Assembly (NCBI GenBank): GCA_958431155.1
Contig: OY288106.1
Span: 141,161-205,160 of the forward strand
Source: an uncultured candidatus Porisulfidus sp.
GTDB taxonomy: Bacteria; Pseudomonadota; Gammaproteobacteria; Poriferisulfidales; Poriferisulfidaceae
DNA: 64,000 nucleotides
Reading direction: 5' to 3'
The notes beneath the pieces are model-generated. The model did no database searches. It had not been told where the DNA came from and worked only from the letters and a program-made list of their open reading frames with translations. Both the position numbers and the translations under genes were made by a program. Below are positions 11,516-53,192 of the stretch, one piece after another (position 1 is the stretch's first letter; each line of letters starts with the position of its first letter).

Positions 11516-11561
11516 GGGCAGGCTCCGGGTTCGGGCCTGCCACATTAGATCAACGGAAAGG

Positions 11562-37413: not shown

Positions 37414-37414
37414 C

Positions 37415-38209
37415 TTATCGTCCCAGGTAGACTTCGATGACGCGGGGGTCCGACTGGATGGCGTCCATCGGGCCTTCGGCGATGACCTGGCCCTCGTCGA
37501 GCACTGTGACCCGGCAGTCCAGGTCGCGCACGAAGTTCATGTCGTGCTCCACCACGACCAGCGAGTGCGTGTTCGAGATTTCGTGCAGCAGCTCCACGGT
37601 CTGTTCGGTCTCGGCATCGGTCATGCCGGCGACCGGTTCGTCGAGCAGCATCAGATCGGGCTCCTGCACCAGCAGCATGCCGATCTCCAACCACTGCTTC
37701 TGTCCGTGCGACAGGGCGCCGGCCGCGCGGTCGCGCTGCGCGGTCAGCCGGATGGTCTCGAGGGCCTGCTCGATGCGCCCGGTCTGCTCGGGGCTGATGC
37801 CGGAGAACAGGGTAAACAGGATGCGGCGGTCGGCCCTCAGGGCGAGCGACAGGTTCTCGAACACGGTCAGGTTCTCGAATACGGTCGGCTTCTGGAACTT
37901 CCGGCCGATGCCAAGGTTGGCGATTTCCGTCTCGTTGAGCGCGGTCAGGTCGATGCGGTCGGCGAACAGCACCTCGCCCTGGTCGGGGCGGGTGCGGCCG
38001 GTGACCACGTCCATCATGGTGGTCTTGCCGGCCCCGTTGGGGCCGATGATGGCGCGCATCTCGCCGCGGTCGATGATCAGGCTCAGGGAGTTGAGCGCGC
38101 GGAAGCCGTCGAAGCTGACCGAGACGCCGTCCAGGTAGAGCAAGGTCTCCGGCGCGATGTGATGGGGCTCGGGCAAGTCGGGCGCGACGGTGGTGTCAGG
38201 CGGATGCAT
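37415..38209 (-). CDS. urtD: urea ABC transporter ATP-binding protein UrtD
   Basis: 264 aa; Walker A GPNGAGKTT, LSHGQKQWLEIG signature. Confidence 0.88.
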   Translation of the reverse strand: MHPPDTTVAPDLPEPHHIAPETLLYLDGVSVSFDGFRALNSLSLIIDRGEMRAIIGPNGAGKTTMMDVVTGRTRPDQGEVLFADRIDLTALNETEIANLGIGRKFQKPTVFENLTVFENLSLALRADRRILFTLFSGISPEQTGRIEQALETIRLTAQRDRAAGALSHGQKQWLEIGMLLVQEPDLMLLDEPVAGMTDAETEQTVELLHEISNTHSLVVVEHDMNFVRDLDCRVTVLDEGQVIAEGPMDAIQSDPRVIEVYLGR

Positions 38210-39338
38210 GGGAATCCGAGCGGGAAGTTTTGGCGATGGCGCGGCGTTCGTGCCACTGCCGGACCACGCCGACCAGGCCGCGCGGCATCAGCAGGGTGAC
38301 CAGGATGAACAGGGCGCCGAGGAAGAACAGCCAGATCTCCGGTGCGATGCCGGTCAGCAGGCTTTTCGCGCCGTTGACCGCGACCGCGCCCGCAGCCGCA
38401 CCGAACAGCGTGCCGCGACCGCCGACCGCGACCCAGATCGCGATCTCGATAGATTTAGCCGGGGTGAATTCTCCGGGGTTGATGATGCCGACCTGCGGCA
38501 CGTACAGCGCGCCGGCGATGCCGGCCAGCATGGCCGACAGCGTGAACACGAACAGCTTGGCCCGGGTCACCGAGTAGCCCAGGAAACGCACGCGGCTCTC
38601 GGCGTCGCGTACCGCGATCAGCACCCGGCCGAGCTTCGACGTGACCACGTAGCGGCACAACAGGTAGACGAGCCCGAGCATCAGTGCGGAGGCGAGGTAC
38701 AGCCCGACCTTGGTGGTGGAAGCCGACAGGTCGAAGCCGAGCAGGTCCTTGAAGTCGGTCAGCCCGTTGTTGCCGCCGAAGCCCATCTCGTTGCGGAAGA
38801 ACGCCAGCATCATGGCGAACACCATGGCCTGGCTGATGATGGAGAAGTACACGCCGGTGATTCGCGAGCGGAAGGCCAGCCAGCCGAACACGAACGCGAG
38901 GCTGCCCGGCACCAGCATGGCCATCAGCACGGCGAAGGCGAAACTGTCGAACCCGAACCAGTACCAGGGCAATTCCTTCCAGTTCAGGAACACCATGAAG
39001 TCGGGCAACTCCGGATGCCCGTACACGCCGCGCTCGCCGATCTGGCGCATCAGGTACATGCCCATGGCGTAGCCGCCGAGGCCGAAGAATGCGCCGTGGC
39101 CGAGGCTCAGGATCCCCGCGTAGCCCCAGATCAGGTCTAGCGCCAGCGCCAGCATCGCGAAGCACAGGAACTTGCCGAGCGTCGTGACCCAGAAGGTCGA
39201 CACGTGCAGCCAGGCGTCCTGCGGCACGACCAGGTTCAACACCGGCACGACCAGCATCAACACGGCGGCGAGGCCCATGAATACGGTCCAGCCGCGGCGA
39301 GACTCCAGGGCGAACAGGCGCGAGGAGAGCGGTCCCAT
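38196..39338 (-). CDS. urtC: urea ABC transporter permease UrtC
   Basis: 380 aa LivM-type permease. Confidence 0.85.
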   Translation of the reverse strand: MGPLSSRLFALESRRGWTVFMGLAAVLMLVVPVLNLVVPQDAWLHVSTFWVTTLGKFLCFAMLALALDLIWGYAGILSLGHGAFFGLGGYAMGMYLMRQIGERGVYGHPELPDFMVFLNWKELPWYWFGFDSFAFAVLMAMLVPGSLAFVFGWLAFRSRITGVYFSIISQAMVFAMMLAFFRNEMGFGGNNGLTDFKDLLGFDLSASTTKVGLYLASALMLGLVYLLCRYVVTSKLGRVLIAVRDAESRVRFLGYSVTRAKLFVFTLSAMLAGIAGALYVPQVGIINPGEFTPAKSIEIAIWVAVGGRGTLFGAAAGAVAVNGAKSLLTGIAPEIWLFFLGALFILVTLLMPRGLVGVVRQWHERRAIAKTSRSDSHASA

Positions 39339-39341
39339 GGC

Positions 39342-41000
39342 CTAGTCGCCGGCGGCGCGGCCCTTCAGCGCGAACAGGCCGCGCGGGCGCATCTGGATGA
39401 ACAGGATGATGAAGATCAGCACCACGATCTTGCCGAGGATGGCGCCGGAGACGGGCTCCAGGAACTTGTTGACGATGCCGAGGCTGAAGGCGCCGACGAT
39501 GGTGCCCCACAGGCTGCCTACGCCGCCGAATACCACCACCATGAAGCTGTCGACGATGAAGTTCTGGCCGAGGTTCGGGCTGACGTTGGAGATCTGGCTC
39601 AGCGCCATGCCGGCGACCCCGGCAATGCCGGACCCCAGTGCGAAGGTCAGGGCGTCGACCTGTCCGGTGCGGATGCCCATGGAGGCGGCCATCGAGCGGT
39701 TCTGGGTGACCGCGCGCATATTCAGGCCGAAGCGCGAATAGCGGATGAACGCGGCCAGCGCGGCGACCACCGCCAGGCAGAACAGGATGATGCACAGGCG
39801 GTTGAGCGTGACCGTCACGCCGCCGGCGATCTCGACGGCGCCGGAGATCCATTCGGGATTGGCAACCTCGCGGTTGTTGGCGCCGAACAGCGAGCGCACC
39901 AGCTGCTGCAGGATCAGGCTGATGCCCCAGGTGGCCAGCAGGGTCTCGAGCGGCCGCCCGTACAGGAAGCGGATGACCCCGCGCTCGATCAGCACGCCCA
40001 TGGCGGCGGACATCAGGAAGGCGACGGGCAGGGCGGCGAGCAGGTAGAACCCGAACAGTTCGGGCGGGATCACGCTGCGGAAGATCTCCTGCACCATGAA
40101 GGTGGAGTAGGCGCCCAGCATGATCATTTCGCCATGCGCCATGTTGATGACGCCCATCACGCCGAAGGTGATCGCCAATCCGATCGCGGCCAGCAGCAGC
40201 ACCGAGCCGAGGCTGATCCCGAACAGCAGGTTCTCGGCGATGCCGAACAGCCACAGCTTCCGGTCGATGGTTTCGACCGCGCTATGCAGGGCGTCTCGGA
40301 CTGCGGGGTCCGGTTCGATATCCGGTTGCAGGCGACGCTTCAGCAGCGAGTGGATGTCCGGATCGGAGATCTCGGCCAAGGTGGTGGCGGCTGCCAGGCG
40401 CAGGGCTGGATCGTCCGCTTCCAACTCCAGCACGGCGATGCCGATTTCCAGCTTGGCCCGGACCGCGTCATCGGTCTCCCGGTCCCGCGCTTGGCGAAAC
40501 AGGGGCAGGGCCTGGGGCTTGGGGTTCTTGATCAGGTTGTCCGCGGCTTCGAGCCGTTGACCGGGGTCGTCGCTGAACAGCGCCAACCGGCCGGCAACGC
40601 CGCGAATCAATCGGCGCAGTCGGTTGTTGACCTTGATTTTCTTTAATTCTTTTTTCCCGGCCTTGGGTTCGGACCGTCCGCTCGCCGCATCCTGTATGGT
40701 GTACTGTTTTCCAGCGCGTTCCGCGATGACGATCCGGCCGTCTTCGCGTACGTACAGCCGGCCCTTGGCGAGCGCCCCCAGCACTTCGAGGACGCGAGGC
40801 CCGCCGAGAGCTCCCAGGTGTTCGATAGCCTGGGCCTTCTGCTTGAATTTCTTGGTGTCGAGAGCCTGCAGCGCGGCGTGGAGGTCAGCCTCGGACGGTT
40901 CGGCTGCAGCAGGTGCCGCGGCGAACAGCAGGGCTGCGCCCAGTGCGGCGGTTCCGAGGATTTTTCCTCCGGACCGGCCTTTGCGTGTCAGGTGGACCAT
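39342..41000 (-). CDS. urtB: urea ABC transporter permease UrtB (long N-terminal periplasmic extension)
   Basis: 552 aa; signal peptide + ~240-aa repeat-containing N-domain + LivH-type permease. Confidence 0.85.
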   Translation of the reverse strand: MVHLTRKGRSGGKILGTAALGAALLFAAAPAAAEPSEADLHAALQALDTKKFKQKAQAIEHLGALGGPRVLEVLGALAKGRLYVREDGRIVIAERAGKQYTIQDAASGRSEPKAGKKELKKIKVNNRLRRLIRGVAGRLALFSDDPGQRLEAADNLIKNPKPQALPLFRQARDRETDDAVRAKLEIGIAVLELEADDPALRLAAATTLAEISDPDIHSLLKRRLQPDIEPDPAVRDALHSAVETIDRKLWLFGIAENLLFGISLGSVLLLAAIGLAITFGVMGVINMAHGEMIMLGAYSTFMVQEIFRSVIPPELFGFYLLAALPVAFLMSAAMGVLIERGVIRFLYGRPLETLLATWGISLILQQLVRSLFGANNREVANPEWISGAVEIAGGVTVTLNRLCIILFCLAVVAALAAFIRYSRFGLNMRAVTQNRSMAASMGIRTGQVDALTFALGSGIAGVAGMALSQISNVSPNLGQNFIVDSFMVVVFGGVGSLWGTIVGAFSLGIVNKFLEPVSGAILGKIVVLIFIILFIQMRPRGLFALKGRAAGD

Positions 41001-41086
41001 GGCGTTGTACCCGGCCTATTATTATCCGCTACGGGCGGATCCTAAGGCCAGGCCGGCGGCGGGGCCGCCGGCCTGTGCCAGAGAGG

Positions 41087-42361
41087 TTACGAGCTGGGCT
41101 TCTCGCAGTTGCCGCAAGAGAACGGCTCGGTCCAGTCGGACATCAGCTTGGCGCTTTCCGGGATGAAGTCGGACCAGGCGTCGCCGGGGACCACGCCGTC
41201 GGTCTCCCAGACCACTTCAAACTGCCCGTCGTCCTGGATCTCGCCGATCAGCACCGGCTTCGACAGGTGATGGTTGACGTTCATGACTGCCGTGCCGCCG
41301 GTCAGGTTCGGGGCGGTCTGGCCGTACATGGCGGCGCGCACCGCGTCGATGTCGGTGGTGCCGGCCTTCTCGACCGCCTGCACCCACATCTGGAAGCCGA
41401 TGTAGTGGGCTTCCATCGGGTCGTTGAACACACGGGTGTCCTTGCCGATGAACTCGTGCCACTTGGCGATGACGGCGGAGTTGTGGTCGTCCTCGACGCT
41501 CATGAAGTAGTTCCAGGCGGCCAGGTGCCCGACCAACGGGCCGGTGTCGATGCCGGCGAGCTCTTCCTCGCCGACCGAGAAGGCCACGACCGGAATGTCT
41601 TCCGCCGCGATGCCCTGGTTGCCCAGTTCCTTGTAGAACGGTACGTTGGCGTCGCCGTTGATGGTCGACACCACGGCGGTCTTCTTGCCGGCCGAAGCGA
41701 ACTTCTTGATGTCCGATACGATCGTCTGCCAGTCGGAATGCCCGAACGGCGTGTAGTTGATCATGATGTCTTCTTCCGCCACGCCCTTGGCCTTGAGGAA
41801 TGCCTCGAGGATCTTGTTGGTGGTACGCGGATAGACGTAGTCGGTGCCGGCCAGGACCCAGCGTTCCACGGAACCGCCGTCCTCGCTCATCAGGTACTCC
41901 ACAGCGGGAATCGCCTGCTGGTTCGGCGCGGCGCCGGTGTAGAAGATGTTGCGGGAGGATTCCTCGCCCTCATACTGGACCGGATAGAACAGCATGCCGT
42001 TGAGTTCCTCGAACACCGGAAGCACGGATTTGCGAGAGACCGAAGTCCAGCAGCCGAACACGACGTCGACCTCGTGCTGCTCGATCAGTTCGCGAGCCTT
42101 CTCCGCGAACAGCGGCCAGTCCGAGGCGGGGTCGACGACCACCGCTTCCAGTTTCCGGCCGAGCACGCCGCCCTTGGCGTTCTGCTCGCTGATTAGGAAC
42201 TCCATCACGTCCTTCAGCGCGGTTTCGCTGATGGCCATGGTTCCGGACAAGGAGTGAAGGACGCCGACCTTGATCGGTTCGTCAGCTCGCACTCCCTCTG
42301 AAGCCGCGAGTGAGCCTGCAAACAGACACACCGCAGCCATAAGCTTGCTAACAGTTTTCAT
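41087..42361 (-). CDS. urtA: urea ABC transporter substrate-binding protein UrtA
   Basis: 424 aa; signal peptide; Leu/Ile/Val-BP-like fold sequence typical of UrtA; adjacent to urtBCDE and urease. Confidence 0.88.
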   Translation of the reverse strand: MKTVSKLMAAVCLFAGSLAASEGVRADEPIKVGVLHSLSGTMAISETALKDVMEFLISEQNAKGGVLGRKLEAVVVDPASDWPLFAEKARELIEQHEVDVVFGCWTSVSRKSVLPVFEELNGMLFYPVQYEGEESSRNIFYTGAAPNQQAIPAVEYLMSEDGGSVERWVLAGTDYVYPRTTNKILEAFLKAKGVAEEDIMINYTPFGHSDWQTIVSDIKKFASAGKKTAVVSTINGDANVPFYKELGNQGIAAEDIPVVAFSVGEEELAGIDTGPLVGHLAAWNYFMSVEDDHNSAVIAKWHEFIGKDTRVFNDPMEAHYIGFQMWVQAVEKAGTTDIDAVRAAMYGQTAPNLTGGTAVMNVNHHLSKPVLIGEIQDDGQFEVVWETDGVVPGDAWSDFIPESAKLMSDWTEPFSCGNCEKPSS

Positions 42362-42521
42362 AATTTCCCCTGTTTTGCTTGTTAAAAAAGCAAGAGAACC
42401 ACTCCGGATCCGGGAGCCCTCCCGGCCGGGATCGCTGATTCAAGATCAGATTGCCCTCTCGCGGGCTATTTTAGCATGACCCCAAAGAGAGTGTGGAGAT
42501 GCGCCGGACGGAGGTGGCGGA

Positions 42522-42866
42522 TCAGCGTTCCGCGACCGGTGTCAGCACCTCGCGGAAGAAGGGCAGCCAGGACAGCAGCAGCCACAGTACGAAGACGACT
42601 TCCGCCGCCAACACCCGCCGCCAGCGTGCACGAGCCTCGGGCAGGGCGTCGGCGAGGCGGACCGACGACATGAGAATGTCGAACAGCAGCACGAAGAATA
42701 CCAGCGGGGCCGCCGCCGGCAGGACGAGGGTGCGGATCAGGGCGAGGCCCTGCAGGCTCAGCGGCACGCCCGGGTCGGTCGCAGACAGTGCGAGGATGCC
42801 GGTCAGCGCCAGCAGTGCCATGCGCAGGACGCCCAGTTCGGCGGCGAACGCGCGGGCCGAGATCAT
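42522..42866 (-). CDS. small hydrophobic membrane protein (4 predicted TM), translationally coupled to sat
   Basis: 114 aa; ATGA overlap with sat stop; no recognisable motif. Confidence 0.45.
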   Translation of the reverse strand: MISARAFAAELGVLRMALLALTGILALSATDPGVPLSLQGLALIRTLVLPAAAPLVFFVLLFDILMSSVRLADALPEARARWRRVLAAEVVFVLWLLLSWLPFFREVLTPVAER

Positions 42867-44047
42867 AGCGACTGGTAGTAGTCCATCAGGATCCGGGCGA
42901 TCTCCGGGCGGGCGAATTCCAACGGCAGGTCCTCGCCATTGGACAACATCTCCCGCACCCGGGTGCCGGACAGCAGGACAAAGTCCTCTGGCTGGTGGTC
43001 CGGTGCGTCGCGCATCATGACCACCTTGTCGAGCTTCTTGGAGTATGCAGTGTGGTCGGCACGGAAGATCTCGATATCCAGCGCGTCCTGCGAGGCCTGA
43101 TCATCGAAGATCGTCTGCGCATCGAATGCTCCATAGTAGTCGCCGACTCCGGCATGGTCGCGCCCGACGATCAGGTGCGTGCAGCCGGCGTTCTGGCGGA
43201 AGATGGCGTGCAGCACCGCTTCGCGCGGGCCGGCATAAAGCATGTCGAAGCCGTAGCCGGTGATCATCACCGTGTTGGGTGGGAAGTAGAGTTCGACCAT
43301 CTTGCGGATGGCGGCGTCGCGGACGTGGGCCGGGATGTCGCCGGGTTTCAGGCGTCCGAGCAGCATGTGGATGAGCACGCCGTCGGCACCGACCGTCTCC
43401 TGGGCGATCTTGCACAGTTCCTCATGGGCGCGGTGCATCGGGTTGCGGGTCTGGAAGGCCACCACGCGGTTCCAGCCACGCTCGCCGATCTCGTCGCGGA
43501 TCTGCACTGCGGTGCGGAACGTGCCGGCGAATTCCTCCGGGAAGTAGCTGTAGTCCAGCACCTCGATCGGTCCGGAAACCAGGATGCGGCCGTTCTCCAA
43601 AAAGGTCTTGACGCCGGGGTGCTCGGGGTCGGCGGTTCGGAAGACCTGCTCGGCCAGGCGCTCGAGGTCGGCCTCGGACAGGGTCTCGACGGCCTCGACC
43701 TGCTGGATGGCCAGCACCGGGTGGCCGTCCCGGTTGCAATCGCGCAGGGCGATGCGCGACGCGCCCTCAATGGCGGAGGCGTCCCGCGTCTGGTTGAGGA
43801 TCGGCACCGGCCAGAACAGGCCGGATTCGGTGCGCATCTCGCGCCCGACGCGCAGGGCGTCTGCGGCGTTCATGTATCCGGTGAGCGGGGTGAAGTACCC
43901 GCCGGCCATCATGACGGCATTGGCGACGGCGGCAGAGTTGAGCAGAAGAGAAGGCAAGGATTCGGCCTCGTCCCGAAGCGCGGCCGCGCGCCCGGCGTCT
44001 TCCACGGCGAGCGGGGTCAGTTGCTCGCTGGCGTAGGGGTTGATCAT
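42863..44047 (-). CDS. sat: sulfate adenylyltransferase (ATP sulfurylase, single-chain Sat type)
   Basis: 394 aa; QTRN, GRDHAG, HxxH-like motifs of ATP sulfurylase; internal Met start. Confidence 0.88.
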   Translation of the reverse strand: MINPYASEQLTPLAVEDAGRAAALRDEAESLPSLLLNSAAVANAVMMAGGYFTPLTGYMNAADALRVGREMRTESGLFWPVPILNQTRDASAIEGASRIALRDCNRDGHPVLAIQQVEAVETLSEADLERLAEQVFRTADPEHPGVKTFLENGRILVSGPIEVLDYSYFPEEFAGTFRTAVQIRDEIGERGWNRVVAFQTRNPMHRAHEELCKIAQETVGADGVLIHMLLGRLKPGDIPAHVRDAAIRKMVELYFPPNTVMITGYGFDMLYAGPREAVLHAIFRQNAGCTHLIVGRDHAGVGDYYGAFDAQTIFDDQASQDALDIEIFRADHTAYSKKLDKVVMMRDAPDHQPEDFVLLSGTRVREMLSNGEDLPLEFARPEIARILMDYYQSL

Positions 44048-44102
44048 CGGTCTGTCCGGTGAAAAAAGGAAACCATTGTACTGGTTGCCTGGCCAGCGCG
44101 CG

Positions 44103-45566
44103 TCACTGGTCCGGGGAGTCCGGCCCCGAACGCCCGTAGGCATCCTCGAAGCGGGTGATGTCGTCCTCGCCGAGGTAGTCGCCCGACTGCACTTCGATCA
44201 GTTCCAGCGGGGTTTCCGCCGGATTTTCCAGCCGATGCTTCGTGCCGGCCGGGATGTAGGTGGATTCGTTCTCCGAGAGCAGGAAGGTTTCTTCTCCCCG
44301 CGTCACCCGCGCGGTACCGCGCACCACCACCCAGTGCTCCGCCCGGTGCCGGTGCGATTGAAGCGAGAGCTGCTGGCCCGGGTCGACGATGATGTGCTTG
44401 ACCTGGAACCGGTTGCCGCTGTGTACCGAGTCGTAGTGCCCCCAGGGGCGGTAGACCTTGCGGTGGTACCGGCACTCATCGCGGTCGTCCTGCTTGAGTC
44501 GCTCGACCAGTTTCTTGGTGTCTTGGGTCGCGTGCTTGCCGGCGACGAGCAGGGCGTCGGGCGTGTCGATGATAACGAGATCCTCCACACCAAGCGCCGT
44601 CACCAGCCGGGTCTCGCCGCGCGCGTAGGTGTTTCGGGCATCCTGCAGGATCACGTCGCCCTGGGCCACGTTGCCGCATTCGTCCTTATCGGCATGATCG
44701 GACAAATCCGCGAGCGCAGTCCAGGACCCGACGTCGGACCAATCGCTTCCAAGCGGCACCACGACCGCCTCCGAGGTGTGCTCCATGACGGCGTAGTCCA
44801 CCGAAATGGCGGGGGACCGTGCGAAGGATTCCGCATTCAGACGCAGGAATCCGAGATCCGGGGTTGCGTTGCCGTGAGCTTCCCGGATGGACTCAAGGAC
44901 CGGGGCTGCGTGCTGCTGCAGTTCCCCAAGGTAGCGGGTGGCCCCGAAGACGAACATGCCGCTGTTCCAGTAGCAGTCGCCGGCCTCGATCAGCGCGGCG
45001 GCATTCCCGGCATCCGGCTTTTCCACGAAGCGCTCCACGACCCGGCCGCCCTCGCTTGCACCGGTGGGGGAGCCCGCCTTGATGTAGCCGTAGCCGGTTT
45101 CCGGATAGGTGGGGGTTGCGCCAAACGTCACGAGGTGGCCTGTGGCGGCCTCCTGGGTTGCTTCTCCGACCGCCTGCACGAATTTCTCGGTATTCCGGAT
45201 GATGTGGTCCGTGGGTGTGACCAGGAGAATCGGATCGTCGCCGTCGTCGCACCGGGCCAAGGCCTCCAACGCCGCAGAGGCGATGGCCGGTGCCGTGTTG
45301 CGGGCCGTCGGCTCCAGGAGAATGGCCGTCGGCGTCACCCCGATTGCCTGAAATTGTTCCACCACCATGAACCGATGTTTCTTGTTGCAGACCACGATGG
45401 GAGGACGCAGGTCGTCGATGGCTTCCAGCCTGAGGACGGTGGCCTGCAGCAGGGTGTGCTTGTCCACTAGGGCAATGAGCTGCTTCGGGTAGGCTTCCCG
45501 GGACAGCGGCCAGAGCCGGCTGCCGGCACCGCCGGAAAGGATGACAGGAAATAAGGGACCGCTCAT
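44103..45566 (-). CDS. manC: mannose-1-phosphate guanylyltransferase / mannose-6-phosphate isomerase (bifunctional, type II PMI)
   Basis: 487 aa; N-term nucleotidyltransferase GGAGSRLWPLS, C-term cupin (QSHRHRAEHWVVVRGTA). Confidence 0.9.
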   Translation of the reverse strand: MSGPLFPVILSGGAGSRLWPLSREAYPKQLIALVDKHTLLQATVLRLEAIDDLRPPIVVCNKKHRFMVVEQFQAIGVTPTAILLEPTARNTAPAIASAALEALARCDDGDDPILLVTPTDHIIRNTEKFVQAVGEATQEAATGHLVTFGATPTYPETGYGYIKAGSPTGASEGGRVVERFVEKPDAGNAAALIEAGDCYWNSGMFVFGATRYLGELQQHAAPVLESIREAHGNATPDLGFLRLNAESFARSPAISVDYAVMEHTSEAVVVPLGSDWSDVGSWTALADLSDHADKDECGNVAQGDVILQDARNTYARGETRLVTALGVEDLVIIDTPDALLVAGKHATQDTKKLVERLKQDDRDECRYHRKVYRPWGHYDSVHSGNRFQVKHIIVDPGQQLSLQSHRHRAEHWVVVRGTARVTRGEETFLLSENESTYIPAGTKHRLENPAETPLELIEVQSGDYLGEDDITRFEDAYGRSGPDSPDQ

Positions 45567-45705
45567 CGCACGACGGGTTGTCTTGGGAAAGGGGACAGTC
45601 TAGCAGAGGCTCATTGGGCTCGGTGGCCTTGCGCAACCTTCATCCCATTTGAACCCACGCATGCGTATACTGTGCATCGATTGCGTAGTCTTATTCTGAG
45701 AATTA

Positions 45706-47490
45706 ATGGTTCCAAACTCCGGCAAACACATAGCCCAAAGTTTAATTAAAAGAGCCGACCCGTACCGGGTTCTTCTGCTCGGCGTCTTCGCGGTCGCCGC
45801 CTATTTTTGCCTCGTCAATCTCGATTATGCGGCCTTGTGGTACGACGAGGCACCGGCCGCGATCATCGCCAACAACTTGCTGGAGCAGGGGGACATCATC
45901 GGCTGGGACGGACGCAACTTGGTCGGTGGCACCAACGGGAGCACGCTGAACGAGGACCTTCGAGACGTTCTGCCGCCGCTGATGTACCTGTTCAATGCCG
46001 CCGGGATTTCCGCATTCGGTTTCAACGAAGTCGGTGCGCGCATCGTTCCGGCGCTGATCGGAATCTTTGCGCTGGGGTTGCTCTTTCTGCTCGTGCGGCA
46101 GCAATTGGCAGGGTATCCGCGCCTGGTCTTTTTCGTTTTTCTATTCGCGGCCTGGTCGCCGCAACTCCTTCTGTATTTCCGCCAGTCGCGCTACTTTGCC
46201 TTCATGGCGTTCGCCTTGGTGGCCGTCTTCTATCTGTACGAGCGCTACTGGCAGACTAAAAATGTGGTGTGGCTTGTCGGCCTGACGCTCGTCGCAGCCC
46301 TCTCGTTTTTCAACCATTATGTCGGCGGAGCGGCGACCATGCTGTCGCTGGTTGCGTGGCACCTGATTTTCCATGCCCGGGAAACCACCCGGCGGGAATG
46401 GCTGGCATTTTTCCTTTGCGGGCTCCTGGTGGTGGGGCTGGGCACGGCCTATCTCGCCTTCATAGGACTGATCGGCGGGGAGCGCAGCGAATTTACCCAA
46501 ATTACCGGAATCGCGGGGCTCGAATACCAGGGGAGCGAGCCTATATTTCTGTGGAGAATGTGGGTCTATATGCGCGACATGTTCACTGCGGACTGGATCT
46601 CGTGGCCGGTATTCCTGTGGTTCGCTGGGATGCTTCTGCTCATCTGGCGCTGGCGCAGAGACCAGGTCTGGCAGGCCCGAGCTTCGAGGCAGGTCAAACG
46701 ACAGGCGCAGCGTCGGGGTACTGGCAGCCCCAAATCCGAAGTCAAGGAGCCGGCGGCCGGCTTACCGGTGTTCGCGGCTAGCCGGATCGTGCTGATGGGC
46801 GTATTGTTCGCACTGTTTTCAGCCGCGTTGTCCGTGCAGCCGATCTGGAATTATCCGGTCGCCGATCTGCGTTACTACATGGGTGCATTGCCGCTACTGC
46901 TGGCCATGAAGGGGTTGTTTGCCGAGTGGGTATGGAGAAAATCGAGAGTTGCGGGAGCAGCGACCATCGGGGCGTTGCTGTTCACCAGCGTTGGGGCTGC
47001 GCCGTTCAACATGATCGGGGTGTTCACCGGCGAGCGTACACTGGGTGCGCATTTCTTCCAGTTCATCCGCGAGATTCATCGTCCGTACCGGGACTCCGTA
47101 CAGGTCGTGTCCGACTACCTTCTGGAGCATGCCGACAAGGACGACTTGGTGTATGTGCCAAGCTTCAATAGCCGTGAGGCATTGACCTTCAGGGTCGGCC
47201 ACCATGTCCGGTTATGTTGCGTCCTTCACAAGAACACGCATTTACCGCATGCCGCGGTCGAGGCGCTGGATGCCCCCTTGTATATCGAGGAACACACACC
47301 CGAATGGATCGTCCTGTTCGACCACAGGTTGGAAGAATTAAGGAAAGGGATTGAATCGCACTATGTGGTGGTCGAGAAACTGGATGTGCACTGGTACCAG
47401 ACGCAGCGCCCGGAGTTGAACTTCCGGGCCTTCGAGCCTTTGCCTGCCCGGCATGGTGTCCTCGTCCTGCGTCAGAAAGACGAGCCGTAG
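45706..47490 (+). CDS. GT-C membrane glycosyltransferase, PMT_2 / ArnT-like (GT39/GT83 family)
   Basis: 594 aa, ~12 TM; first-loop WYDEA (DE) motif; large C-terminal soluble domain. Confidence 0.7.
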   Translation: MVPNSGKHIAQSLIKRADPYRVLLLGVFAVAAYFCLVNLDYAALWYDEAPAAIIANNLLEQGDIIGWDGRNLVGGTNGSTLNEDLRDVLPPLMYLFNAAGISAFGFNEVGARIVPALIGIFALGLLFLLVRQQLAGYPRLVFFVFLFAAWSPQLLLYFRQSRYFAFMAFALVAVFYLYERYWQTKNVVWLVGLTLVAALSFFNHYVGGAATMLSLVAWHLIFHARETTRREWLAFFLCGLLVVGLGTAYLAFIGLIGGERSEFTQITGIAGLEYQGSEPIFLWRMWVYMRDMFTADWISWPVFLWFAGMLLLIWRWRRDQVWQARASRQVKRQAQRRGTGSPKSEVKEPAAGLPVFAASRIVLMGVLFALFSAALSVQPIWNYPVADLRYYMGALPLLLAMKGLFAEWVWRKSRVAGAATIGALLFTSVGAAPFNMIGVFTGERTLGAHFFQFIREIHRPYRDSVQVVSDYLLEHADKDDLVYVPSFNSREALTFRVGHHVRLCCVLHKNTHLPHAAVEALDAPLYIEEHTPEWIVLFDHRLEELRKGIESHYVVVEKLDVHWYQTQRPELNFRAFEPLPARHGVLVLRQKDEP

Positions 47491-47529
47491 AACTGACCTG
47501 TCTCCGCGAGGCCCTGGAAGGAGGGTTGG

Positions 47530-49206
47530 TTAGTCCGCGTAGCGGATTCCGAAATCGGCAGGAGGAAGCAGGCTGTTGGGTTTGATTTTCTTCATGGTGA
47601 CATACCAGCCAGCGGTGACGTTTGGCGCGTAGTCTCGCCACCGTCGAACTTCCGGATCTCTTGCCTCGCGGCGCCAGATGCGAACCGGGCCGAACTCCCG
47701 CTCGATCCGATGGCCGGGAATGACCAAATCCGGATTTTCGGACAGGATGTGGCTGGCGGACCGGGCTAAGTTGTGTGTGGTCGTCTCGCCGATGATCTGG
47801 AGTGTTCTCCTGTCGTAGAACGGTATTTTCCGGTGGAGGTAGTAGTAACCGGGTAGTTCGTGATAGTACCGGTCGCCATGCACCACTCCCGTGACGCCAG
47901 GTGCCTGCGCGAGATAGCGATAGGCTTCGAATAGCGGATTCCGCTCGCGGAAGAAATTGATGGTTCCATGATAGTTTGAATAGCCGTGATAGACCCGGTG
48001 CTGTTCGGGCAGCGCGTTCAGGATTCCCGCCACCGAGACTAGTGCGAATACGGAAGCTATGGCTGTAGCCGGCCAGGGTGGGTGGGGCCAGCGCGCAGCG
48101 AGCCGAGCCGTCAAGTCCGAGCCGATCAGAAGCCAGAGGGGAATCGCCGCGAAAATAAATCGGTACTCCTTGTGTGCCGACAGGGAATGGATCAACAGGA
48201 TTATGGTGGCCATGACGAGCAGGAATCCGTAGCGCCGGGGATTGAATAGGGCTGCCAGAACGCAGAGTGCCCCCAATCCGGTACTCGCAAGCCCAAGCCA
48301 CAGGAGGAACTGATAGGGCGGGCTTTCGCCGGTGCGCATCGGGTCGAGAACGAGGTTGGCCTGGATATTTGTGAAGTAGGAATGGAACAATCCGGCGTCC
48401 CACGTGATTCCATCGAACAGGCCGATGGCGAGAAAAGCCGTGATGGCCGCCAGCGTCAGCTGCATCCGGTGACGGGTGTAGAGAAAAGCCACTCCCAGGG
48501 GGAGCAATGCGAGCGGCGCGTACTGCAGGCGTGTGGCTGCCACGAGAACCGAAAGAAAGGCGGTCAGCCAAATCGTTCGGGTCCGATCCAAGGGCGTGCG
48601 CATGCACAGCGCGAGCAGCACGCAGAGCAGGGCTGTCGCCACGAATTCCGTCATCGGCTTGTGGGCGAAACCGACCAGTTCGTACCAGAAGGCTCCCGCT
48701 ACAAGCGCAATTCTTGCTGCCGTCTCGCTGAAATGCCGGCGGGCGAAAAAGTACATCCCCGCCGGAATCAGCAGGGAGACCGCGCAGAACAGGAGTTTGA
48801 TTGCATCGATGTACCAGTGCGGCTGGCCGAGGCCGAGCAGGTCGAACAATGCCAGCGCCGCCGCGACCAGCCCGGGCACCAGCCAGGAGCGCCCGCCGTA
48901 GAAGAACTCCCAGTGGATGATGCCGCTGCCGAACACCAGACGATGTGCCGGCTCCAGGTACTGCATGATCTCGTCCGGGTGCAGAGCAAAGTCTCCCGCC
49001 AGGGCCACTGCCGCGCGTGCCGCGAAAGCCAGAATCAGTATCCACGGCAGGAGTTTCCAGTAAGGTTCGCCAGGTGTCTGCGGATGGAGCAGGGCGTCGG
49101 GAATCGCCCGCATGCGTTGCCGGAGCGGAACCGCCTGCGGCTCCGGGGGACGACTGGTGAGAGCCCGCCGCTGCGCCTGCCTCCTTTTTCTTTCCGCTTT
49201 GCCCAT
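47530..49206 (-). CDS. GT-C membrane mannosyltransferase, GT22 (PIG-B/Alg9-like) family; start may be 49113
   Basis: 558 aa polytopic; N-terminal HPDEIMQYLEPAHR matches GT22 HxDE..Q signature. Confidence 0.6.
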   Translation of the reverse strand: MGKAERKRRQAQRRALTSRPPEPQAVPLRQRMRAIPDALLHPQTPGEPYWKLLPWILILAFAARAAVALAGDFALHPDEIMQYLEPAHRLVFGSGIIHWEFFYGGRSWLVPGLVAAALALFDLLGLGQPHWYIDAIKLLFCAVSLLIPAGMYFFARRHFSETAARIALVAGAFWYELVGFAHKPMTEFVATALLCVLLALCMRTPLDRTRTIWLTAFLSVLVAATRLQYAPLALLPLGVAFLYTRHRMQLTLAAITAFLAIGLFDGITWDAGLFHSYFTNIQANLVLDPMRTGESPPYQFLLWLGLASTGLGALCVLAALFNPRRYGFLLVMATIILLIHSLSAHKEYRFIFAAIPLWLLIGSDLTARLAARWPHPPWPATAIASVFALVSVAGILNALPEQHRVYHGYSNYHGTINFFRERNPLFEAYRYLAQAPGVTGVVHGDRYYHELPGYYYLHRKIPFYDRRTLQIIGETTTHNLARSASHILSENPDLVIPGHRIEREFGPVRIWRREARDPEVRRWRDYAPNVTAGWYVTMKKIKPNSLLPPADFGIRYAD

Positions 49207-49441
49207 TTGAGAGTTCCGAAACCGGGAGGGTGTTTTTTGAGAGTCCGGCTGGCCTGCATTCGCTCGGCTGCCCTAAATTCAGCATTTCCCAGCGTTTTTC
49301 TATTGATCACTATATTCTAATGGATAGGGGCAATCCTTGGCACCATTCGGTCTAGGGGATAGAGGATGGCCATGTCCTACAATAGCGTCGAGCCCTTAAG
49401 CACTGCTCAGTGTTTAATATCGAACTCCTAGACCCGAGATT

Positions 49442-50641
49442 TCAGGCATGACGCCTTTGCTTGCCCCGGATGATTCCAGACCTGCTCTGAATCAGGAGGT
49501 CTCTATCGTGGTGCCGACCTTCCGCGAGGCGGACAACCTCCCGGTCTTGGCCAGGCGCATCGACGCCGCGCTGTCCGGGAGCGGAATCGAGTGGGAACTG
49601 ATTCTGGTCGATGACGATTCGGGCGACGGTAGCGAAGAAGCAGCCGAAAAACTGGCACAGCACTTGCCGGTGCGCATGGAAGTGCGCCGTGAGCCACCCC
49701 GGGACCTGTCCCTGTCGGTACTCCATGGAATCCGCATCGGCCGGTTCGACCGGATCGTGGTTATGGATGCCGACCTGTCGCATCCGCCGGAGCGCATCCC
49801 CGACCTGATCTGCGCACTGGACGGCGAGTGCGACATGGCCGTGGGCAGCCGCTATGTGTCCGGCGGCCGCATCGATCAGGGCTGGAGCCTGTGGCGCCTT
49901 CTGAACTCGTACGGAGCCACCCTGCTGGCACGTCCGCTGGCGGACTGCTCCGACCCGATGTCGGGATTCTTCGCGCTCGACCGCCGCATGCTCCCGGATC
50001 TGGAACAACTGCGGCCGGTCGGCTACAAGATCGGTCTTGAACTCATGGTGCGAGGACGATTGCGGGTGGTGGAAGTCCCGATTGATTTTGCCGATCGGGA
50101 TCGTGGCGCAAGCAAGATGAACCTGCGCCAGCAACTCAACTACCTTCGCCACCTCAAACGTCTGTACCTGTACCGTTTCGGCGGTTTAGCGCGTGTGTTG
50201 AGCTTCGGCATGGTGGGGGTCAGCGGCTTCGTCATCGATCTCGTTTTCTACTTGGGCCTGCAGGCCTTGGGCCTTGAGCACCGTCTGGCGCGCTTTGTGT
50301 CTTTTTGGCCTGCGGTCAGCTGGAACTGGTGGTTAAACCGGCGCGTCACTTTCGATGATCGCCCGCGGCAGGCCCCGACTCGCCAATGGGCCCGATTCGT
50401 GATCGCGAGTCTGGTCGGACTGGGCGTCAACGTCGGCAGTTACCTGGCCCTGACAAGCTACGTGGCGGTGTTCGCCCGCTATCCGCTATTCGCATTCTTT
50501 CTCGGAATCGCCCTTGGCGGGGGGATCAATTTTCTGGTCTCGACCCTGTATGTCTACCGATGGCATTCGGCTTCGAAAGGGGGTTCCAACCGGGAGACAT
50601 CCGCCTGCTCCGACGCCGTGCCGCCGCGCGAGGAGCGCTGA
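49442..50641 (+). CDS. polyprenol-phosphate mannose synthase-like GT2 fused to GtrA-like 4-TM domain
   Basis: 397 aa; VVPTFREADNL, VDDDSGDGS (DxD) GT2 motifs; C-terminal GtrA-like TM bundle. Confidence 0.78.
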   Translation, partial: SGMTPLLAPDDSRPALNQEVSIVVPTFREADNLPVLARRIDAALSGSGIEWELILVDDDSGDGSEEAAEKLAQHLPVRMEVRREPPRDLSLSVLHGIRIGRFDRIVVMDADLSHPPERIPDLICALDGECDMAVGSRYVSGGRIDQGWSLWRLLNSYGATLLARPLADCSDPMSGFFALDRRMLPDLEQLRPVGYKIGLELMVRGRLRVVEVPIDFADRDRGASKMNLRQQLNYLRHLKRLYLYRFGGLARVLSFGMVGVSGFVIDLVFYLGLQALGLEHRLARFVSFWPAVSWNWWLNRRVTFDDRPRQAPTRQWARFVIASLVGLGVNVGSYLALTSYVAVFARYPLFAFFLGIALGGGINFLVSTLYVYRWHSASKGGSNRETSACSDAVPPREER

Positions 50642-50648
50642 GGATTCG

Positions 50649-53192
50649 ATGGGCAAGGCCAGCCGGAGCAAGGCGGAACGGAGGCGCCTGAGGGAGGCCG
50701 AAGCGCAATCCGTCGCGGGGGGAGAGCCCGTAACGACGAGTCGCACGCCGCAGGGGCTGGCTTCGTTTTTCACGGCGCCCGGTCCGCCCAGCGATTTTCC
50801 GTACCATGCCGGGCTCGGCGTCCTATTGCTCGCCTTGCTGGTGGTGGCCAGTTACTACCCGGTGCTTCTGGCCGGATTCATCTGGGATGACGTCGCCTTC
50901 ACCGACGCACAGCCGGTTAGGGAATGGTCTGGAATCTGGGACATTTGGTTTCATCCGGAGTCGCTCGCGAAGGAAGGGCACTACTGGCCGGTCGTGTATA
51001 CGAGTTTCTGGCTGGAACATAAATTGTGGGGATTTGCGGCGGCTGGCTACCACGCGGTCAATATTCTGCTGCAACTGGTCAACACTCTGCTGGTGTGGCG
51101 GCTGATGCTGCGTCTGGCGGTGCCCGGCGCTTGGCTCATTGCTGCCGTGTTCGCCGTGCATCCGCTGCATGTCGAGTCGGTGGCCTGGATTATCGAGCGC
51201 AAAGATTTGCTTTCGGGCCTGTTTTACCTTTCGGCCGTTCTGGTCTGGTTGCGCTTCATGGACGAGCCGCGCCGGGGGCACTATTTCCTGGCGATGGGAC
51301 TGTTCGTGGCGAGTCTCCTCAGCAAGACCGTCACGGTGACTTTGCCTGCGGCGCTGCTGGTGTTGTACTGGTGGAAACGGGAGCGCGTGGCCATGGCGGA
51401 CGTGTTGCCGCTATTGCCGTTTTTTGTAGTGGGGTTCGCCATCACTCTGGGTGACATGTCGTACTACACCTCCCGGGAGATTTTGGATCTGGATTATTCA
51501 TTCATCGAGCGAGCGCATATTGCGGCGCAGGCCCTGTGGTTCTATGTGGGCAAGTTGCTGTGGCCGACCAACCTGATAGTCGTTTACCCGTTCTGGGAAG
51601 TCGGAGCCGCGAATCCAATTGGCTGGATGTATCTTGCTGCTGCCATTGCCTTGGTGGCAGTACTGTGGCTTGTGCGGGAGAGGATCGGTCGAGGACCGCT
51701 GGCCGCGACGCTGTTCTTCGGGGTGACGCTGTCGCCGGTGCTCGGCTTCGTGGACTACGGCTACATGCAGTTCTCCTTCGTCGCCGACCGTTTCCAGTAC
51801 CTGGCCGGCATCGGCGCGATGGCGGCGCTCATCGGAGCCGCGGTTCATGCGGCCGGGAGGCTGCCGGAAGCGGCAAGGAAAAGTGCTTTGGGCGCTGCCC
51901 TGCTCGGAATCGCCCTGTTGGCGGCGCTGTCTTGGAAGCAATCCCACATCTATCGGGATGAGATCGTCTTCTTCGAATACATCATCGCGCACAACCCGCA
52001 GGCACGGGATGCCCACCACAATCTCGGCAAGGCGCTGTATGAAGTCGGACGCATGGATGAGGCTCTTGTGGCCACCCGCGTTGCCGTGGAGCAGCGCCCG
52101 GATTTTGCGGGTGCCCACAACAACCTGGGTCTAGCGCTCAAGCATCATGGCGAACTGATCGGGGCGGAAAAAGCCTTCCGGCGCGGTCACAAGGCCGACC
52201 CGCGCGACAAGAAGATCCTTCAGAATCTAGGCGAGGTGATTCGATGGCAGGGCCGGCACGAGGAATCGCTGGATTGGTACGACGCCATCCTCAAACGCGA
52301 CCGGAACAACTCGCGAGCTTACGCGGGCAAGGGCAATGCCCTGTTCTCCCTGAAGCGGTACGACGAGGCCATCGTAAACCTGAAGAAGGCACTGTCCTTG
52401 GAGCCAGACATGCCGCAGGCGCCACTGCTCCATACCCTCATCGGCGATGCAGCACAGGAATTGGGTCAGTTCGAGGAAGCACGGCGACACTATGAGCATG
52501 CCCTGCAGATCGAACCGGGATTGGGCCAGGCGCATGCGAATCTGATCGGCATGCTGCTCGACCTGCAACGTCCCGCAGAGGTGGAGCGGCGTCTGCAGGT
52601 CGTCCGCGACCTGAGCGCGGACGATCCGGTCAACCTGCAGGGCGTGGCTGAACTATTCAGGAAACGGGAGCAGTACGAGCGGGCGCTTGAATGGTACGAC
52701 GCGGTATTTCGGATCGATCCCGACTACACTCAGGCTTATGCGGGCAAGGGCGAGGCCTTGTTCCGCCTGAATCGGCACGAGGAAGCGATCAAATCCTTGG
52801 GGCAGGCCGTCGCCCTGGAACCCGACATGCCGACCGTACCGACACTGCGCGTGCTTATGGGCGAGTCGGCTCAGGCTCTGGGCCGGATGGAAGAGGCGTC
52901 GGAACAGTACGATCGGGTCTTGGAGGCCGACCCGGACCACACGGGCGCGATTGACCGGCTCGCCATGGTGCGTTACGAGCAGGGACGCCTTGAGGAGGCG
53001 CTTGAACTCTACCGGCGGCACATCGGCATCGAACCCGGCAGCGCGAACGCCCATGCCAACCTCGGCGTCGTGCTGTACAGGATGGGGCGCTCCGAAGAGG
53101 CGCGCGAGGTCTTGGAACATGCGCTTTCCCTGGATCCAGCAACGGTCATGGCGCAGACCGTACTGGAACTGATTCGCAAGGAATCGAAATAG
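50649..53192 (+). CDS. TMTC-like protein: N-terminal DUF1736-type GT-C membrane domain fused to long TPR array
   Basis: 847 aa; FIWDD (first-loop DD), VHPLHVESVAWIIERKDLL motif characteristic of TMTC/DUF1736; >=9 TPR units in C-terminal 450 aa. Confidence 0.75.
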   Translation: MGKASRSKAERRRLREAEAQSVAGGEPVTTSRTPQGLASFFTAPGPPSDFPYHAGLGVLLLALLVVASYYPVLLAGFIWDDVAFTDAQPVREWSGIWDIWFHPESLAKEGHYWPVVYTSFWLEHKLWGFAAAGYHAVNILLQLVNTLLVWRLMLRLAVPGAWLIAAVFAVHPLHVESVAWIIERKDLLSGLFYLSAVLVWLRFMDEPRRGHYFLAMGLFVASLLSKTVTVTLPAALLVLYWWKRERVAMADVLPLLPFFVVGFAITLGDMSYYTSREILDLDYSFIERAHIAAQALWFYVGKLLWPTNLIVVYPFWEVGAANPIGWMYLAAAIALVAVLWLVRERIGRGPLAATLFFGVTLSPVLGFVDYGYMQFSFVADRFQYLAGIGAMAALIGAAVHAAGRLPEAARKSALGAALLGIALLAALSWKQSHIYRDEIVFFEYIIAHNPQARDAHHNLGKALYEVGRMDEALVATRVAVEQRPDFAGAHNNLGLALKHHGELIGAEKAFRRGHKADPRDKKILQNLGEVIRWQGRHEESLDWYDAILKRDRNNSRAYAGKGNALFSLKRYDEAIVNLKKALSLEPDMPQAPLLHTLIGDAAQELGQFEEARRHYEHALQIEPGLGQAHANLIGMLLDLQRPAEVERRLQVVRDLSADDPVNLQGVAELFRKREQYERALEWYDAVFRIDPDYTQAYAGKGEALFRLNRHEEAIKSLGQAVALEPDMPTVPTLRVLMGESAQALGRMEEASEQYDRVLEADPDHTGAIDRLAMVRYEQGRLEEALELYRRHIGIEPGSANAHANLGVVLYRMGRSEEAREVLEHALSLDPATVMAQTVLELIRKESK

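Follow-up and report, generated by a model that had tools for sequence, protein, structure and literature searches.

A candidate periplasmic mannosylation module of four co-conserved glycosyltransferase genes in Candidatus Porisulfidus and in metagenome-assembled genomes of about ten phyla

Results

Genes at the locus

The window analyzed here is a stretch of 64,000 nucleotides from an uncultured Candidatus Porisulfidus sp. (assembly GCA_958431155.1, contig OY288106.1, positions 141,161 to 205,160), and our subject is a set of five neighboring genes in mixed orientation at 44103-53192, which a preliminary description made from the sequence alone had read as a pathway of lipid-linked mannose transfer. 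The five genes are present as described, every domain call was reproduced, and the gene calls agree with those on L085, a near-identical public contig. manC (44103-45566, minus strand) encodes a bifunctional mannose-6-phosphate isomerase/mannose-1-phosphate guanylyltransferase for GDP-mannose supply (TIGR01479, 657.6 bits, with matches to PF00483, PF01050 and PF22640 as well). Going by the gene coordinates, a divergent intergenic region of 139 bp (45567-45705) separates it from the gene for a PMT_2-type GT-C glycosyltransferase (45706-47490, plus strand, 594 amino acids, aa), which is followed by that for a homolog of GT22 (ALG9/ALG12/PIG-B-type) GT-C mannosyltransferases (47530-49206, minus strand, 558 aa). 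A second divergent intergenic region, of 241 bp (49207-49447), lies between the GT22 gene and a plus-strand operon encoding a GT2+GtrA protein, a predicted polyprenyl-phosphate mannose synthase of the DPMS type (49448-50641, 397 aa), and a protein in which a GT-C catalytic domain (residues 1-437, 50649-51959) precedes a periplasmic superhelix of about 12 tetratricopeptide repeats (TPRs; residues 438-847, 51960-53192). The open reading frame (ORF) of this GT-C/TPR protein opens at 50514, and the gene start is the ATG at 50649, 7 bp past the synthase stop, giving a protein of 847 aa; it is the start called on L085 and is common to all homologs.

The synthase, the GT22 protein and the PMT_2-like protein

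The synthase matches PF00535 (85.9 bits) and PF04138 (the GtrA/DPMS transmembrane (TM) domain, 71.4 bits), the assignment that had been expected, and is laid out as a cytoplasmic GT2 catalytic domain followed by a GtrA-like domain of four TM helices, with a DAD motif at residues 107-109. Its alignment with the DPMS of P. furiosus (PDB 5mlz) spans residues 16-365 of 397 (E 7.8e-62, 212.7 bits), a score about three times higher than those for ArnC (57-64 bits) and above that for GtrB (34 bits); ArnC and PgfS were also matched weakly among NCBIfam models. The features by which the DPMS type is recognized, namely a GT2 domain with DXD, a four-TM GtrA/DPMS domain and full-length homology to DPMS, are thus all found, and the enzyme would probably transfer mannose from GDP-mannose onto a polyprenyl phosphate. 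It shares with the P. furiosus enzyme the full-length alignment, the DAD motif and the order of GT2 and GtrA-like TM domains; the lipid of the latter is dolichol phosphate, whereas that of the window protein would be undecaprenyl phosphate. A second GT2-GtrA lineage, found in about ten related loci and 26-30% identical to the window synthase, is also nearest to DPMS (149 bits versus 48 for ArnC).

For the GT22 protein, the proposed assignment to PF03901 (Glyco_transf_22) was borne out at 99.4 bits over residues 55-402, against a cut-off of 23.8. Its HPDE (76-79) and HKEYRF (345-350) motifs are invariant in 36 homologs and Q82 is invariant in the family, so that a PF03901 score above the gathering threshold, HP(D/C)E in the first loop and HKE.RF, which together mark the family, are all seen. 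The family profile aligned with ALG9 (9s6s) with an E-value of 0.0012 via HPDE and HKEYRF. The characterized GT22 members (ALG9, ALG12, PIG-B and PIG-Z), of which ALG9 and ALG12 are the solved enzymes matched by the protein, all use dolichyl-phosphate-mannose (Dol-P-Man) to our knowledge. With these eukaryotic enzymes the window protein has PF03901, HPDE, HKE(E/Y)RF and the alignment to ALG9 in common; it differs in being bacterial, 558 aa long and significant against solved sequences at the motif level only, and its acceptor cannot be a Dol-PP-oligosaccharide or a glycosylphosphatidylinositol of the eukaryotic kind. Our literature search found no characterized bacterial GT22 enzyme.

The PMT_2-like protein scored 29.0 bits with PF13231, barely above the cut-off of 26.1, and this expected match was its sole Pfam match. 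WYDE (residues 45-48) stands directly past TM1 (22-40) in the first periplasmic loop, its D47 and E48 being invariant in 47 homologs, and a small C-terminal alpha/beta periplasmic domain is ArnT-like. An AlphaFold2 model, weaker than that of the GT-C/TPR protein (pLDDT 68.7, pTM 0.70), looks recognizably GT-C; Foldseek placed ArnT 5f15 at the top (E 2.5e-5, TM 0.46-0.50, 14% identity), with further matches to STT3, Pmt4, DPY19, AglB, AftA and PglB. HHpred also finds ArnT as the nearest solved structure for the TMTCs themselves (PMC7801869). None of the NCBIfam models for ArnT was matched and the window holds no arn genes, and so the signs of an ArnT/GT83 enzyme are missing; the preliminary description, for which an assignment of the GT-Cs to lipid A or 4-amino-4-deoxy-L-arabinose families would have been fatal, holds on this point, the link to ArnT being a weak fold match (TM about 0.5). 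The ArnC/ArnT pathway is alike in pairing a GT2 synthase with a GT-C transferase, and ArnT is the top solved fold here; it is unlike in that the window lacks arnA, arnB and arnD, has no ArnT family match and carries a synthase that scores 57-64 bits with ArnC. Nor did PF02366 or MIR models match the PMT_2-like or GT-C/TPR protein at E<=0.01, so that the signature of GT39 PMTs is absent, although homologs of the PMT_2-like protein are named 'glycosyltransferase family 39 protein' by NCBI. In sequence and profile searches of the PDB neither family had a match, and a profile-profile comparison of the two likewise gave none, which makes them only distantly related GT-Cs. Several PMT_2-like homologs (P0260-P0262, P0266, P0278, P0279 and others, of ~740-815 aa) carry a C-terminal TPR domain of their own, with 60-63% identity across 97% of the PMT_2-like length, indicating that a TPR fusion was either acquired or shed by a second one of the module's GT-C families.

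The GT-C/TPR protein and its likeness to TMTCs

TMTC1-4 of animals are cadherin O-mannosyltransferases, and the GT-C/TPR protein had been called TMTC-like, with PF08409 (TMTC_DUF1736) as the suggested check. This check failed: PF08409 matched neither the protein at E<=10 nor any of its relatives (0/34). The N-terminal domain scored 25.7 bits with PMT_2, just below the cut-off, and 29 of the 34 relatives match PMT_2. The likeness stands in architecture and in several motifs and spacings, and falls short in the DUF1736 loop and DW motif. In a confident AlphaFold2 model (pLDDT 84.7) a basic cytoplasmic N-terminus is followed by about 11 TM helices within residues 54-435 and by 24 TPR helices from residue 438, which is the arrangement of TMTCs (a GT-C with about 11 TM helices, then C-terminal TPRs on the non-cytoplasmic side). 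Motifs were compared by published position (PMC7801869, Table 4; Eisenhaber et al.) rather than by sequence alignment, using residues of the GT-C/TPR protein that are invariant in 34-60 homologs. M1 (DD) is matched by D80-D81 within WDD 79-81, M3 (RxD) by R184-K-D186 and M7 (ERxxY) by D380-R-F-Q-Y384, the last with a conservative E-to-D change. Partial matches were obtained for M2 (SHKSYRP; G-H111-Y-W-P114), M4 (KE(T/Q)xxT; K226....T231, the Glu missing) and M6 (PxxP; P363 only), and M5 (DW) is absent, with no conserved DW in residues 270-320. FAVHPLH at 168-174 is the counterpart of FAVHPIH of TMTC3, the second His lying 10 residues from the Arg of RxD in both proteins, and 17 residues separate the conserved Pro from [DE]R, as in TMTC1. 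Animal TMTC1-4 (CAZy GT105; PMC7801869) thus resemble the protein in their cytoplasmic N-terminus, about 11 TM helices and non-cytoplasmic C-terminal TPRs, as well as in DD of EL1, FAVHP[IL]H-(10)-RxD, K....T of EL3 and [DE]RxxY of EL5, and differ from it in having DUF1736 (EL4), DW, the Glu of M4 and SHKSYRP where GHYWP is found here. As far as sequence can tell, the protein would combine the TMTC architecture and much of the catalytic frame with a different EL4 loop, and we regard it as TMTC-like on paper and do not class it as a member of the TMTC family.

The TPR domain is most like that of OGT, a protein glycosyltransferase. Within it we observed an internal duplication of ~100 residues, ~529-625 and ~668-765 (about 52230-52530 and 52650-52950; ...YAGKGNALFSLKRYDEAIVNLKKALSLEPDMP... 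and ...YAGKGEALFRLNRHEEAIKSLGQAVALEPDMP...), which is kept across homologs. The N-terminal domain belongs to a very large family; when grouped at 50% identity it comprises 65,294 clusters with E<=1e-3, of which 6,889 reach E<=1e-30, in a continuum of identities; no functional study of it was found in the literature.

The GT-C fold was confirmed for two of the three GT-Cs, and in all three an acidic motif is invariant past TM1: WDD 79-81 in the GT-C/TPR protein, HPDE in the GT22 protein and WYDE in the PMT_2-like protein. Its position, together with basic N-termini, places the active sites in the periplasm, and the odd number of TM helices places the TPR domain there also. The GT-C/TPR protein (50649-50720, MGKASRSKAERRRLRE...) and the GT22 protein (49141-49206, MGKAERKRRQAQRRAL...) begin with closely similar polybasic cytoplasmic tails, which are kept in both family consensuses, the proteins being otherwise unrelated; the shared tail might be an interaction or sorting signal.

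Co-conservation of the genes

Seventy-nine distinct genome loci, anchored solely on the GT22 gene, were compared, and neighbors were counted within 10 kb of GT22 when the match covered at least half of the query. The GT-C/TPR N-terminal domain was found in 46 of the 79 loci (58%), a PMT_2-like gene (>=56% identity) in 22 (28%) and a synthase of the window type (>=62% identity) in 21 (27%), a clustering far beyond chance. In L001, a 75%-identical relative, the PMT_2-like, synthase, GT-C/TPR and GT22 genes are co-oriented between the same sat and clpB flanks; in L002 (63%), the synthase, two GT-C/TPR paralogs and GT22 adjoin clpB; and in L003 (52%), in an unrelated context, the synthase, GT-C/TPR, GT22 and PMT_2-like genes form one operon. 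The inverted arrangement of the window recurs with its order intact beside the ATP synthase operon in L086, where the synthase is a fragment of 111 aa (9364-9699); signs of decay were also noted as in-frame stops in two GT-C/TPR paralogs (L019:14040-15446 and L031:19545-20960). Gene order varies among lineages and adjacency is kept, and paralog arrays occur, with four tandem GT22 genes in L061 and three GT22 plus three GT-C/TPR genes in L056.

The preliminary description had treated all five genes as a set. Co-conservation, whose absence was to have refuted that description, holds for the four genes other than manC, in syntenic and in unrelated contexts, and does not extend to manC, which was found within 10 kb of GT22 in seven of the 79 loci (9%), spanning at least four classes, and is lacking in the syntenic L001. 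Among sugar-nucleotide genes, manC alone was seen to recur near the module; its GC content at third codon positions (GC3) of 0.82 is intermediate between module genes and flanks. It is an accessory neighbor and not a conserved module member.

All-versus-all clustering of every ORF in the 79 loci yielded no other broadly recurrent family, with two exceptions. The first is a stand-alone GtrA (135-140 aa; PF04138, 95 bits) directly upstream of GT22 in 13 loci (L021:9366-9785, plus strand, and also L006, L013, L015, L018, L019, L024, L029, L030, L031, L033, L040 and L075); a GtrA domain 58-68% identical to it forms the C-terminus of the second GT2-GtrA lineage in about ten further loci. The second is a TMEM260-like GT-C (PF11028, 78.7 bits, plus PMT_2) adjoining GT22 in nine loci (L049:7411-9966, plus strand, and also L045, L056, L063, L065, L068, L070, L073 and L081) of Gamma- and Alphaproteobacteria, Nitrospirales and Acidobacteriota. 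In animals, TMEM260 represents the third family of protein O-mannosyltransferases. Adjacency maintained despite changes of order, along with the paralog arrays, argues for a functional module in which a DPMS-type synthase and a GtrA component are combined with varying sets of GT-Cs; a GT2 synthase, GtrA and GT-C are encoded together, as in the three-component (Gtr-like) systems, GtrA being fused to the synthase.

Several module copies have giant Calx-beta, cadherin-like, fn3, Ig-like or T9SS-tailed surface proteins encoded within 10 kb (L002:2943-7925, L086:1-2218, L035:16458-21638, L062:15180-18818, and also in L009, L014, L016, L022 and L026). As neighborhood acceptors, such proteins (Calx-beta, cadherin-like, T9SS-tailed and autotransporter) number about 20 per 1.7 Mb, approximately background, and we retain them as a lead only.

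Distribution and probable horizontal transfer

All 79 loci are from metagenome-assembled genomes (MAGs) of about ten phyla: Latescibacterota, Spirochaetia, Acidobacteriota (including Ca. Versatilivorator, which is placed there by taxonomy), Thermodesulfobacteriota, Dadabacteria, Binatia, Nitrospirales, Gemmatimonadota, Rhodothermaceae, Alphaproteobacteria and Gammaproteobacteria, including Ca. Porisulfidus. These are phyla typical of sponge or coral microbiomes; most host attributions come from our reading of isolate names (APA_bin, IRC4_bin, SB0661, Langseth and Plut), which we take to denote sponge or coral metagenome bins. Porisulfidus has been described as a known sponge symbiont (PMC12988363), and MAGs of Latescibacteria, Dadabacteria and Binatia have been recovered from the sponge Petrosia (PMC12648040). 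A literature lookup of MAG hosts returned nothing by accession, nor for Versatilivorator.

The nearest relatives of the window genes are in gammaproteobacterial MAGs, with 79-81% identity to APA_bin_21 (L034) for the synthase and the GT-C/TPR N-terminal domain and 68-80% to two Porisulfidus MAGs (L035 and L047). Mean identities between phyla or classes, as against those within a phylum, are 61% versus 70% for GT22, 60.5% versus 75% for the GT-C/TPR N-terminal domain and 58% versus 69% for the PMT_2-like protein. In 22 of 90 GT22, 14 of 62 GT-C/TPR and 8 of 25 PMT_2-like sequences the nearest neighbor comes from a different phylum or class. Among chromosome-level MAGs, the PMT_2-like proteins of Nitrospirales OY282373 and Gammaproteobacteria OY282353 are 91% identical. 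The window GT22 protein stands no farther from Acidobacteriota (62% identity) than from its own class (60-61%). GC3 is 0.73-0.76 in the four module genes (45706-53192) versus 0.86-0.93 in the flanking housekeeping genes. Cross-phylum pairs of 92-95% identity on short contigs (L012 and L036) were discounted for possible mis-binning, and the argument is built on the chromosome-level MAGs and the overall identity distribution. The cross-phylum identities and nearest neighbors, with the atypical GC3, point to repeated horizontal spread of the module within a host-associated community, as far as sequence comparison can speak to it. In a large survey of sponge MAGs, TPR proteins were enriched and cadherin and fn3 genes laterally transferred, and glycosyltransferases and mannose were not mentioned (PMC8163846).

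Other features of the window

The module is flanked by housekeeping genes, with ATP sulfurylase, urea transporter and urease genes upstream and clpB and proS downstream. The region directly upstream (35885-44143) holds a urease accessory gene, a urea ABC transporter (urtABCD-like) and a sat-type ATP sulfurylase gene, in a synteny also seen in L001 and L085; these genes fit a urea-using, sulfur-oxidizing symbiont lifestyle as inferred for relatives of Ca. Porisulfidus. A promoter consensus scan gave nothing above shuffled sequences in 45567-45705, and in 49207-49447 a weak promoter-like site on the minus strand (49343-49314) that was not above shuffle expectation. Terminator-like matches exceeded shuffles in the window scan, yet nearly all are intragenic. 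Farther upstream, at 4120-11543, lies a type II secretion/type IV pilus-like set (T2SSF-like, T2SSE ATPase and secretin), amid which ORFs at 2772-3848, 7263-8150 and 8374-9327 are without a Pfam match; low GC3 (0.71-0.79) was likewise seen for the secretion/pilus genes at 5.7-11.5 kb. A link between the glycosyltransferases and this nearby pilus, as entertained before, did not survive: over 32 kb separate the T2SSF, T2SSE and secretin genes from the glycosyltransferase genes, none of the related loci has them, and the set is unrelated to the mannosylation module.

Discussion

The proposed pathway

The domain identities, motifs, topology, co-conservation and cross-phylum distribution reported above are direct observations, and the interpretation that we consider to have about an even chance of being right as a whole is that of a horizontally mobile four-gene module for periplasmic mannosylation, beside which manC has been recruited. 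The pathway would run as follows. ManC would make GDP-mannose, from which the DPMS-type GT2-GtrA protein would load mannose onto undecaprenyl phosphate at the cytoplasmic face of the inner membrane; the lipid-linked mannose would then reach the periplasmic face, perhaps aided by the GtrA-like domain of the synthase itself, and there serve as donor for the three GT-Cs, each with an acidic motif in its first periplasmic loop. The TMTC-like GT-C/TPR protein may select protein acceptors with its TPR superhelix and start Ser/Thr O-mannosylation, the GT22 enzyme may add mannose onto mannose, as do ALG9, ALG12 and PIG-B, and the PMT_2-like enzyme may carry out a further or alternative transfer. Which sugar is donated, how it is flipped, what class of acceptor receives it and in what order the enzymes act are inferred, like all function here, from sequence, predicted structure and gene context. 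In its logic the earlier reading, with mannose carried on a lipid and passed on by periplasmic GT-Cs, is upheld. Confidence differs among the parts of the pathway: periplasmic glycosylation from a lipid-linked sugar is very probable, and the sugar is probably mannose, while a protein acceptor is proposed tentatively, at slightly less than even confidence.

Alternative explanations

The weakest alternative is that five unrelated envelope glycosyltransferase genes became adjacent by chance. It could appeal to the mixed orientation in the window and to manC not being conserved with the others; it is contradicted by the co-occurrence counts (46, 22 and 21 of 79), by the occurrence of the same families around GT22 across some ten phyla, with gene order and context varying, and by the recurrence of the inverted arrangement beside the ATP synthase operon of another genome (L086), and is hardly credible. 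A donor other than mannose (undecaprenyl-phosphate-glucose, -GlcNAc or another), with manC a mere neighbor, is more serious, if still improbable. The sugar specificity of DPMS-like enzymes is not readable from sequence, DAD/DXD is a catalytic motif common to GtrB, ArnC and DPMS, the synthase has those weak matches to ArnC and PgfS, and manC adjoins the module in just 9% of loci, L001 lacking it altogether. Our preference for mannose is founded on both synthase lineages being nearest to DPMS, with full-length matches scoring about three times higher than for ArnC/GtrB, on the use of Dol-P-Man by the GT22 family and on manC being the sole recurring sugar-nucleotide gene.

In the main rival reading the machinery is unchanged and the acceptor is a glycan or glycolipid. 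The GT-Cs would decorate or build lipopolysaccharide (LPS; its lipid A, core or O-antigen part), a capsule, an exopolysaccharide or a lipid-anchored mannan, in the manner of Gtr, Arn and mycobacterial lipomannan/lipoarabinomannan systems, with the TPR domain as a scaffold or glycan binder. Several points weigh on this side or against a protein acceptor. TPR domains occur in polysaccharide export scaffolds too; GT22 enzymes act on glycans, not protein; the GT-C/TPR protein lacks the DUF1736 loop of EL4, the DW motif and the metal-binding Glu of M4; the PMT_2-like enzyme, with its ArnT-like C-terminal alpha/beta domain, has as its best solved match, albeit weakly, the lipid A transferase ArnT; the paralog arrays of L061 and L056 resemble the polymer-building Mpt/Aft sets of mycobacteria; and a Wzy_C gene and a GT2 gene adjoin one module copy (L086). 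No acceptor gene was found conserved beside the module in the clustering of the 79 loci, and giant surface proteins, at about one per 85 kb, are not clearly above background. Gram-negative three-component systems, moreover, classically modify O-antigens and other glycans and mostly decorate glycans (PMC11127046). However, the same clustering found no Wzx/Wzy, ABC-exporter or LPS-core genes recurring with the module, and no ArnT or lipid A NCBIfam model was matched. The TPR domain is OGT-like, the TMTC-like and TMEM260-like GT-Cs have only protein O-mannosyltransferases as characterized relatives, and TfpW, the only characterized bacterial GT-C+TPR enzyme, acts on protein. It is because of the OGT-like TPRs, these relatives of two GT-C families and the TfpW precedent that we lean tentatively toward protein and regard a glycan acceptor as the less likely of the two.

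Comparison with known systems

In mycobacteria, O-mannose is reportedly extended by a further GT-C. The actinobacterial Ppm1 plus Pmt pathway (GT39; Mycobacterium and Streptomyces; PMC5882110, PMC11727336) is like the proposed one in leading from GDP-mannose via polyprenyl-phosphate-mannose to a GT-C with an acidic motif in an extracytoplasmic loop. In contrast to it, the window has no PF02366, its synthase is of the archaeal/eukaryote-like membrane DPMS type with a GtrA-like domain, three GT-C families (TMTC-like with TPRs, GT22 and PMT_2) are brought together and the hosts are diderms of many phyla. The preliminary statement that among bacteria only this pathway is well characterized is outdated, given TfpW, the streptococcal Pgf enzymes, which glycosylate Ser/Thr-rich regions (PMC12041528), and the three-component systems common in Gram-negatives (PMC11127046). 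TfpW of P. aeruginosa O-glycosylates pilin (bioRxiv 10.1101/2020.04.19.049825). By description it resembles the GT-C/TPR protein in being a GT-C of a Gram-negative inner membrane that has 11 TM helices, DDx in one of its periplasmic loops and C-terminal TPRs in the periplasm, and it resembles the proposed pathway in using a polyprenyl-phosphate monosaccharide donor for protein O-glycosylation. Unlike the module it transfers D-arabinofuranose, works alone and has its gene immediately behind pilA, which encodes its substrate, whereas the GT-C/TPR enzyme is paired with GT22 and PMT_2-like enzymes and has no adjacent substrate gene; its neighbors are the synthase gene and clpB, and not a pilin gene. 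Gtr systems (GtrA/GtrB/GtrC; PMC11127046) share with the module a GT2 synthase, a GtrA member (fused here, stand-alone in 13 loci) and a periplasmic GT-C. They employ one serotype-specific GT-C on O-antigen; the module brings in up to three or more families of GT-Cs, among them the eukaryote-like GT22, TMTC-like and TMEM260-like ones, and is not linked to O-antigen genes.

The three-component logic and the kind of each part are thus already known, a qualification to the earlier statement that the combined set is without a described function; that statement stands insofar as no description of the module was found in our literature searches. The combination in diderms of a DPMS-type synthase with GT22, TMTC-like/TPR and PMT_2-like enzymes (and TMEM260-like ones elsewhere) appears undescribed, as does its cross-phylum spread among MAGs of sponge-typical phyla.

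Implications

The beta-sandwich folds are the classes of protein mannosylated by TMTC and TMEM260 in animals. One could speculate, as a long shot, that symbionts of sponges and corals share by horizontal transfer an animal-like O-mannosylation toolkit, consisting of relatives of TMTC, TMEM260 and ALG9/12-type GT22 together with a DPMS-type synthase, and use it to O-mannosylate their own beta-sandwich surface proteins (cadherin-like, fn3, Calx-beta and Ig-like), which might provide a host-like glycan coat for host recognition or escape from phagocytosis. For sponge symbionts, enrichment and lateral transfer of cadherin and fn3 attachment genes have been reported (PMC8163846).

Should proteins be its acceptors, the module would amount to a general protein O-mannosylation pathway in Gram-negatives, built from the nearest bacterial relatives of animal TMTC, TMEM260 and ALG9/12. 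It would then offer simple bacterial models for human-disease-linked enzymes whose catalysis is poorly defined, and would bear on the origin of eukaryotic lumenal mannosyltransferases. Since the GT-C/TPR N-terminal family is of such size, one characterized member would annotate very many genes. Whatever the acceptor, the retention of about 60% identity among some ten phyla that inhabit the same animal hosts makes the module a strong candidate for a symbiosis trait, one that could remodel the cell surface.

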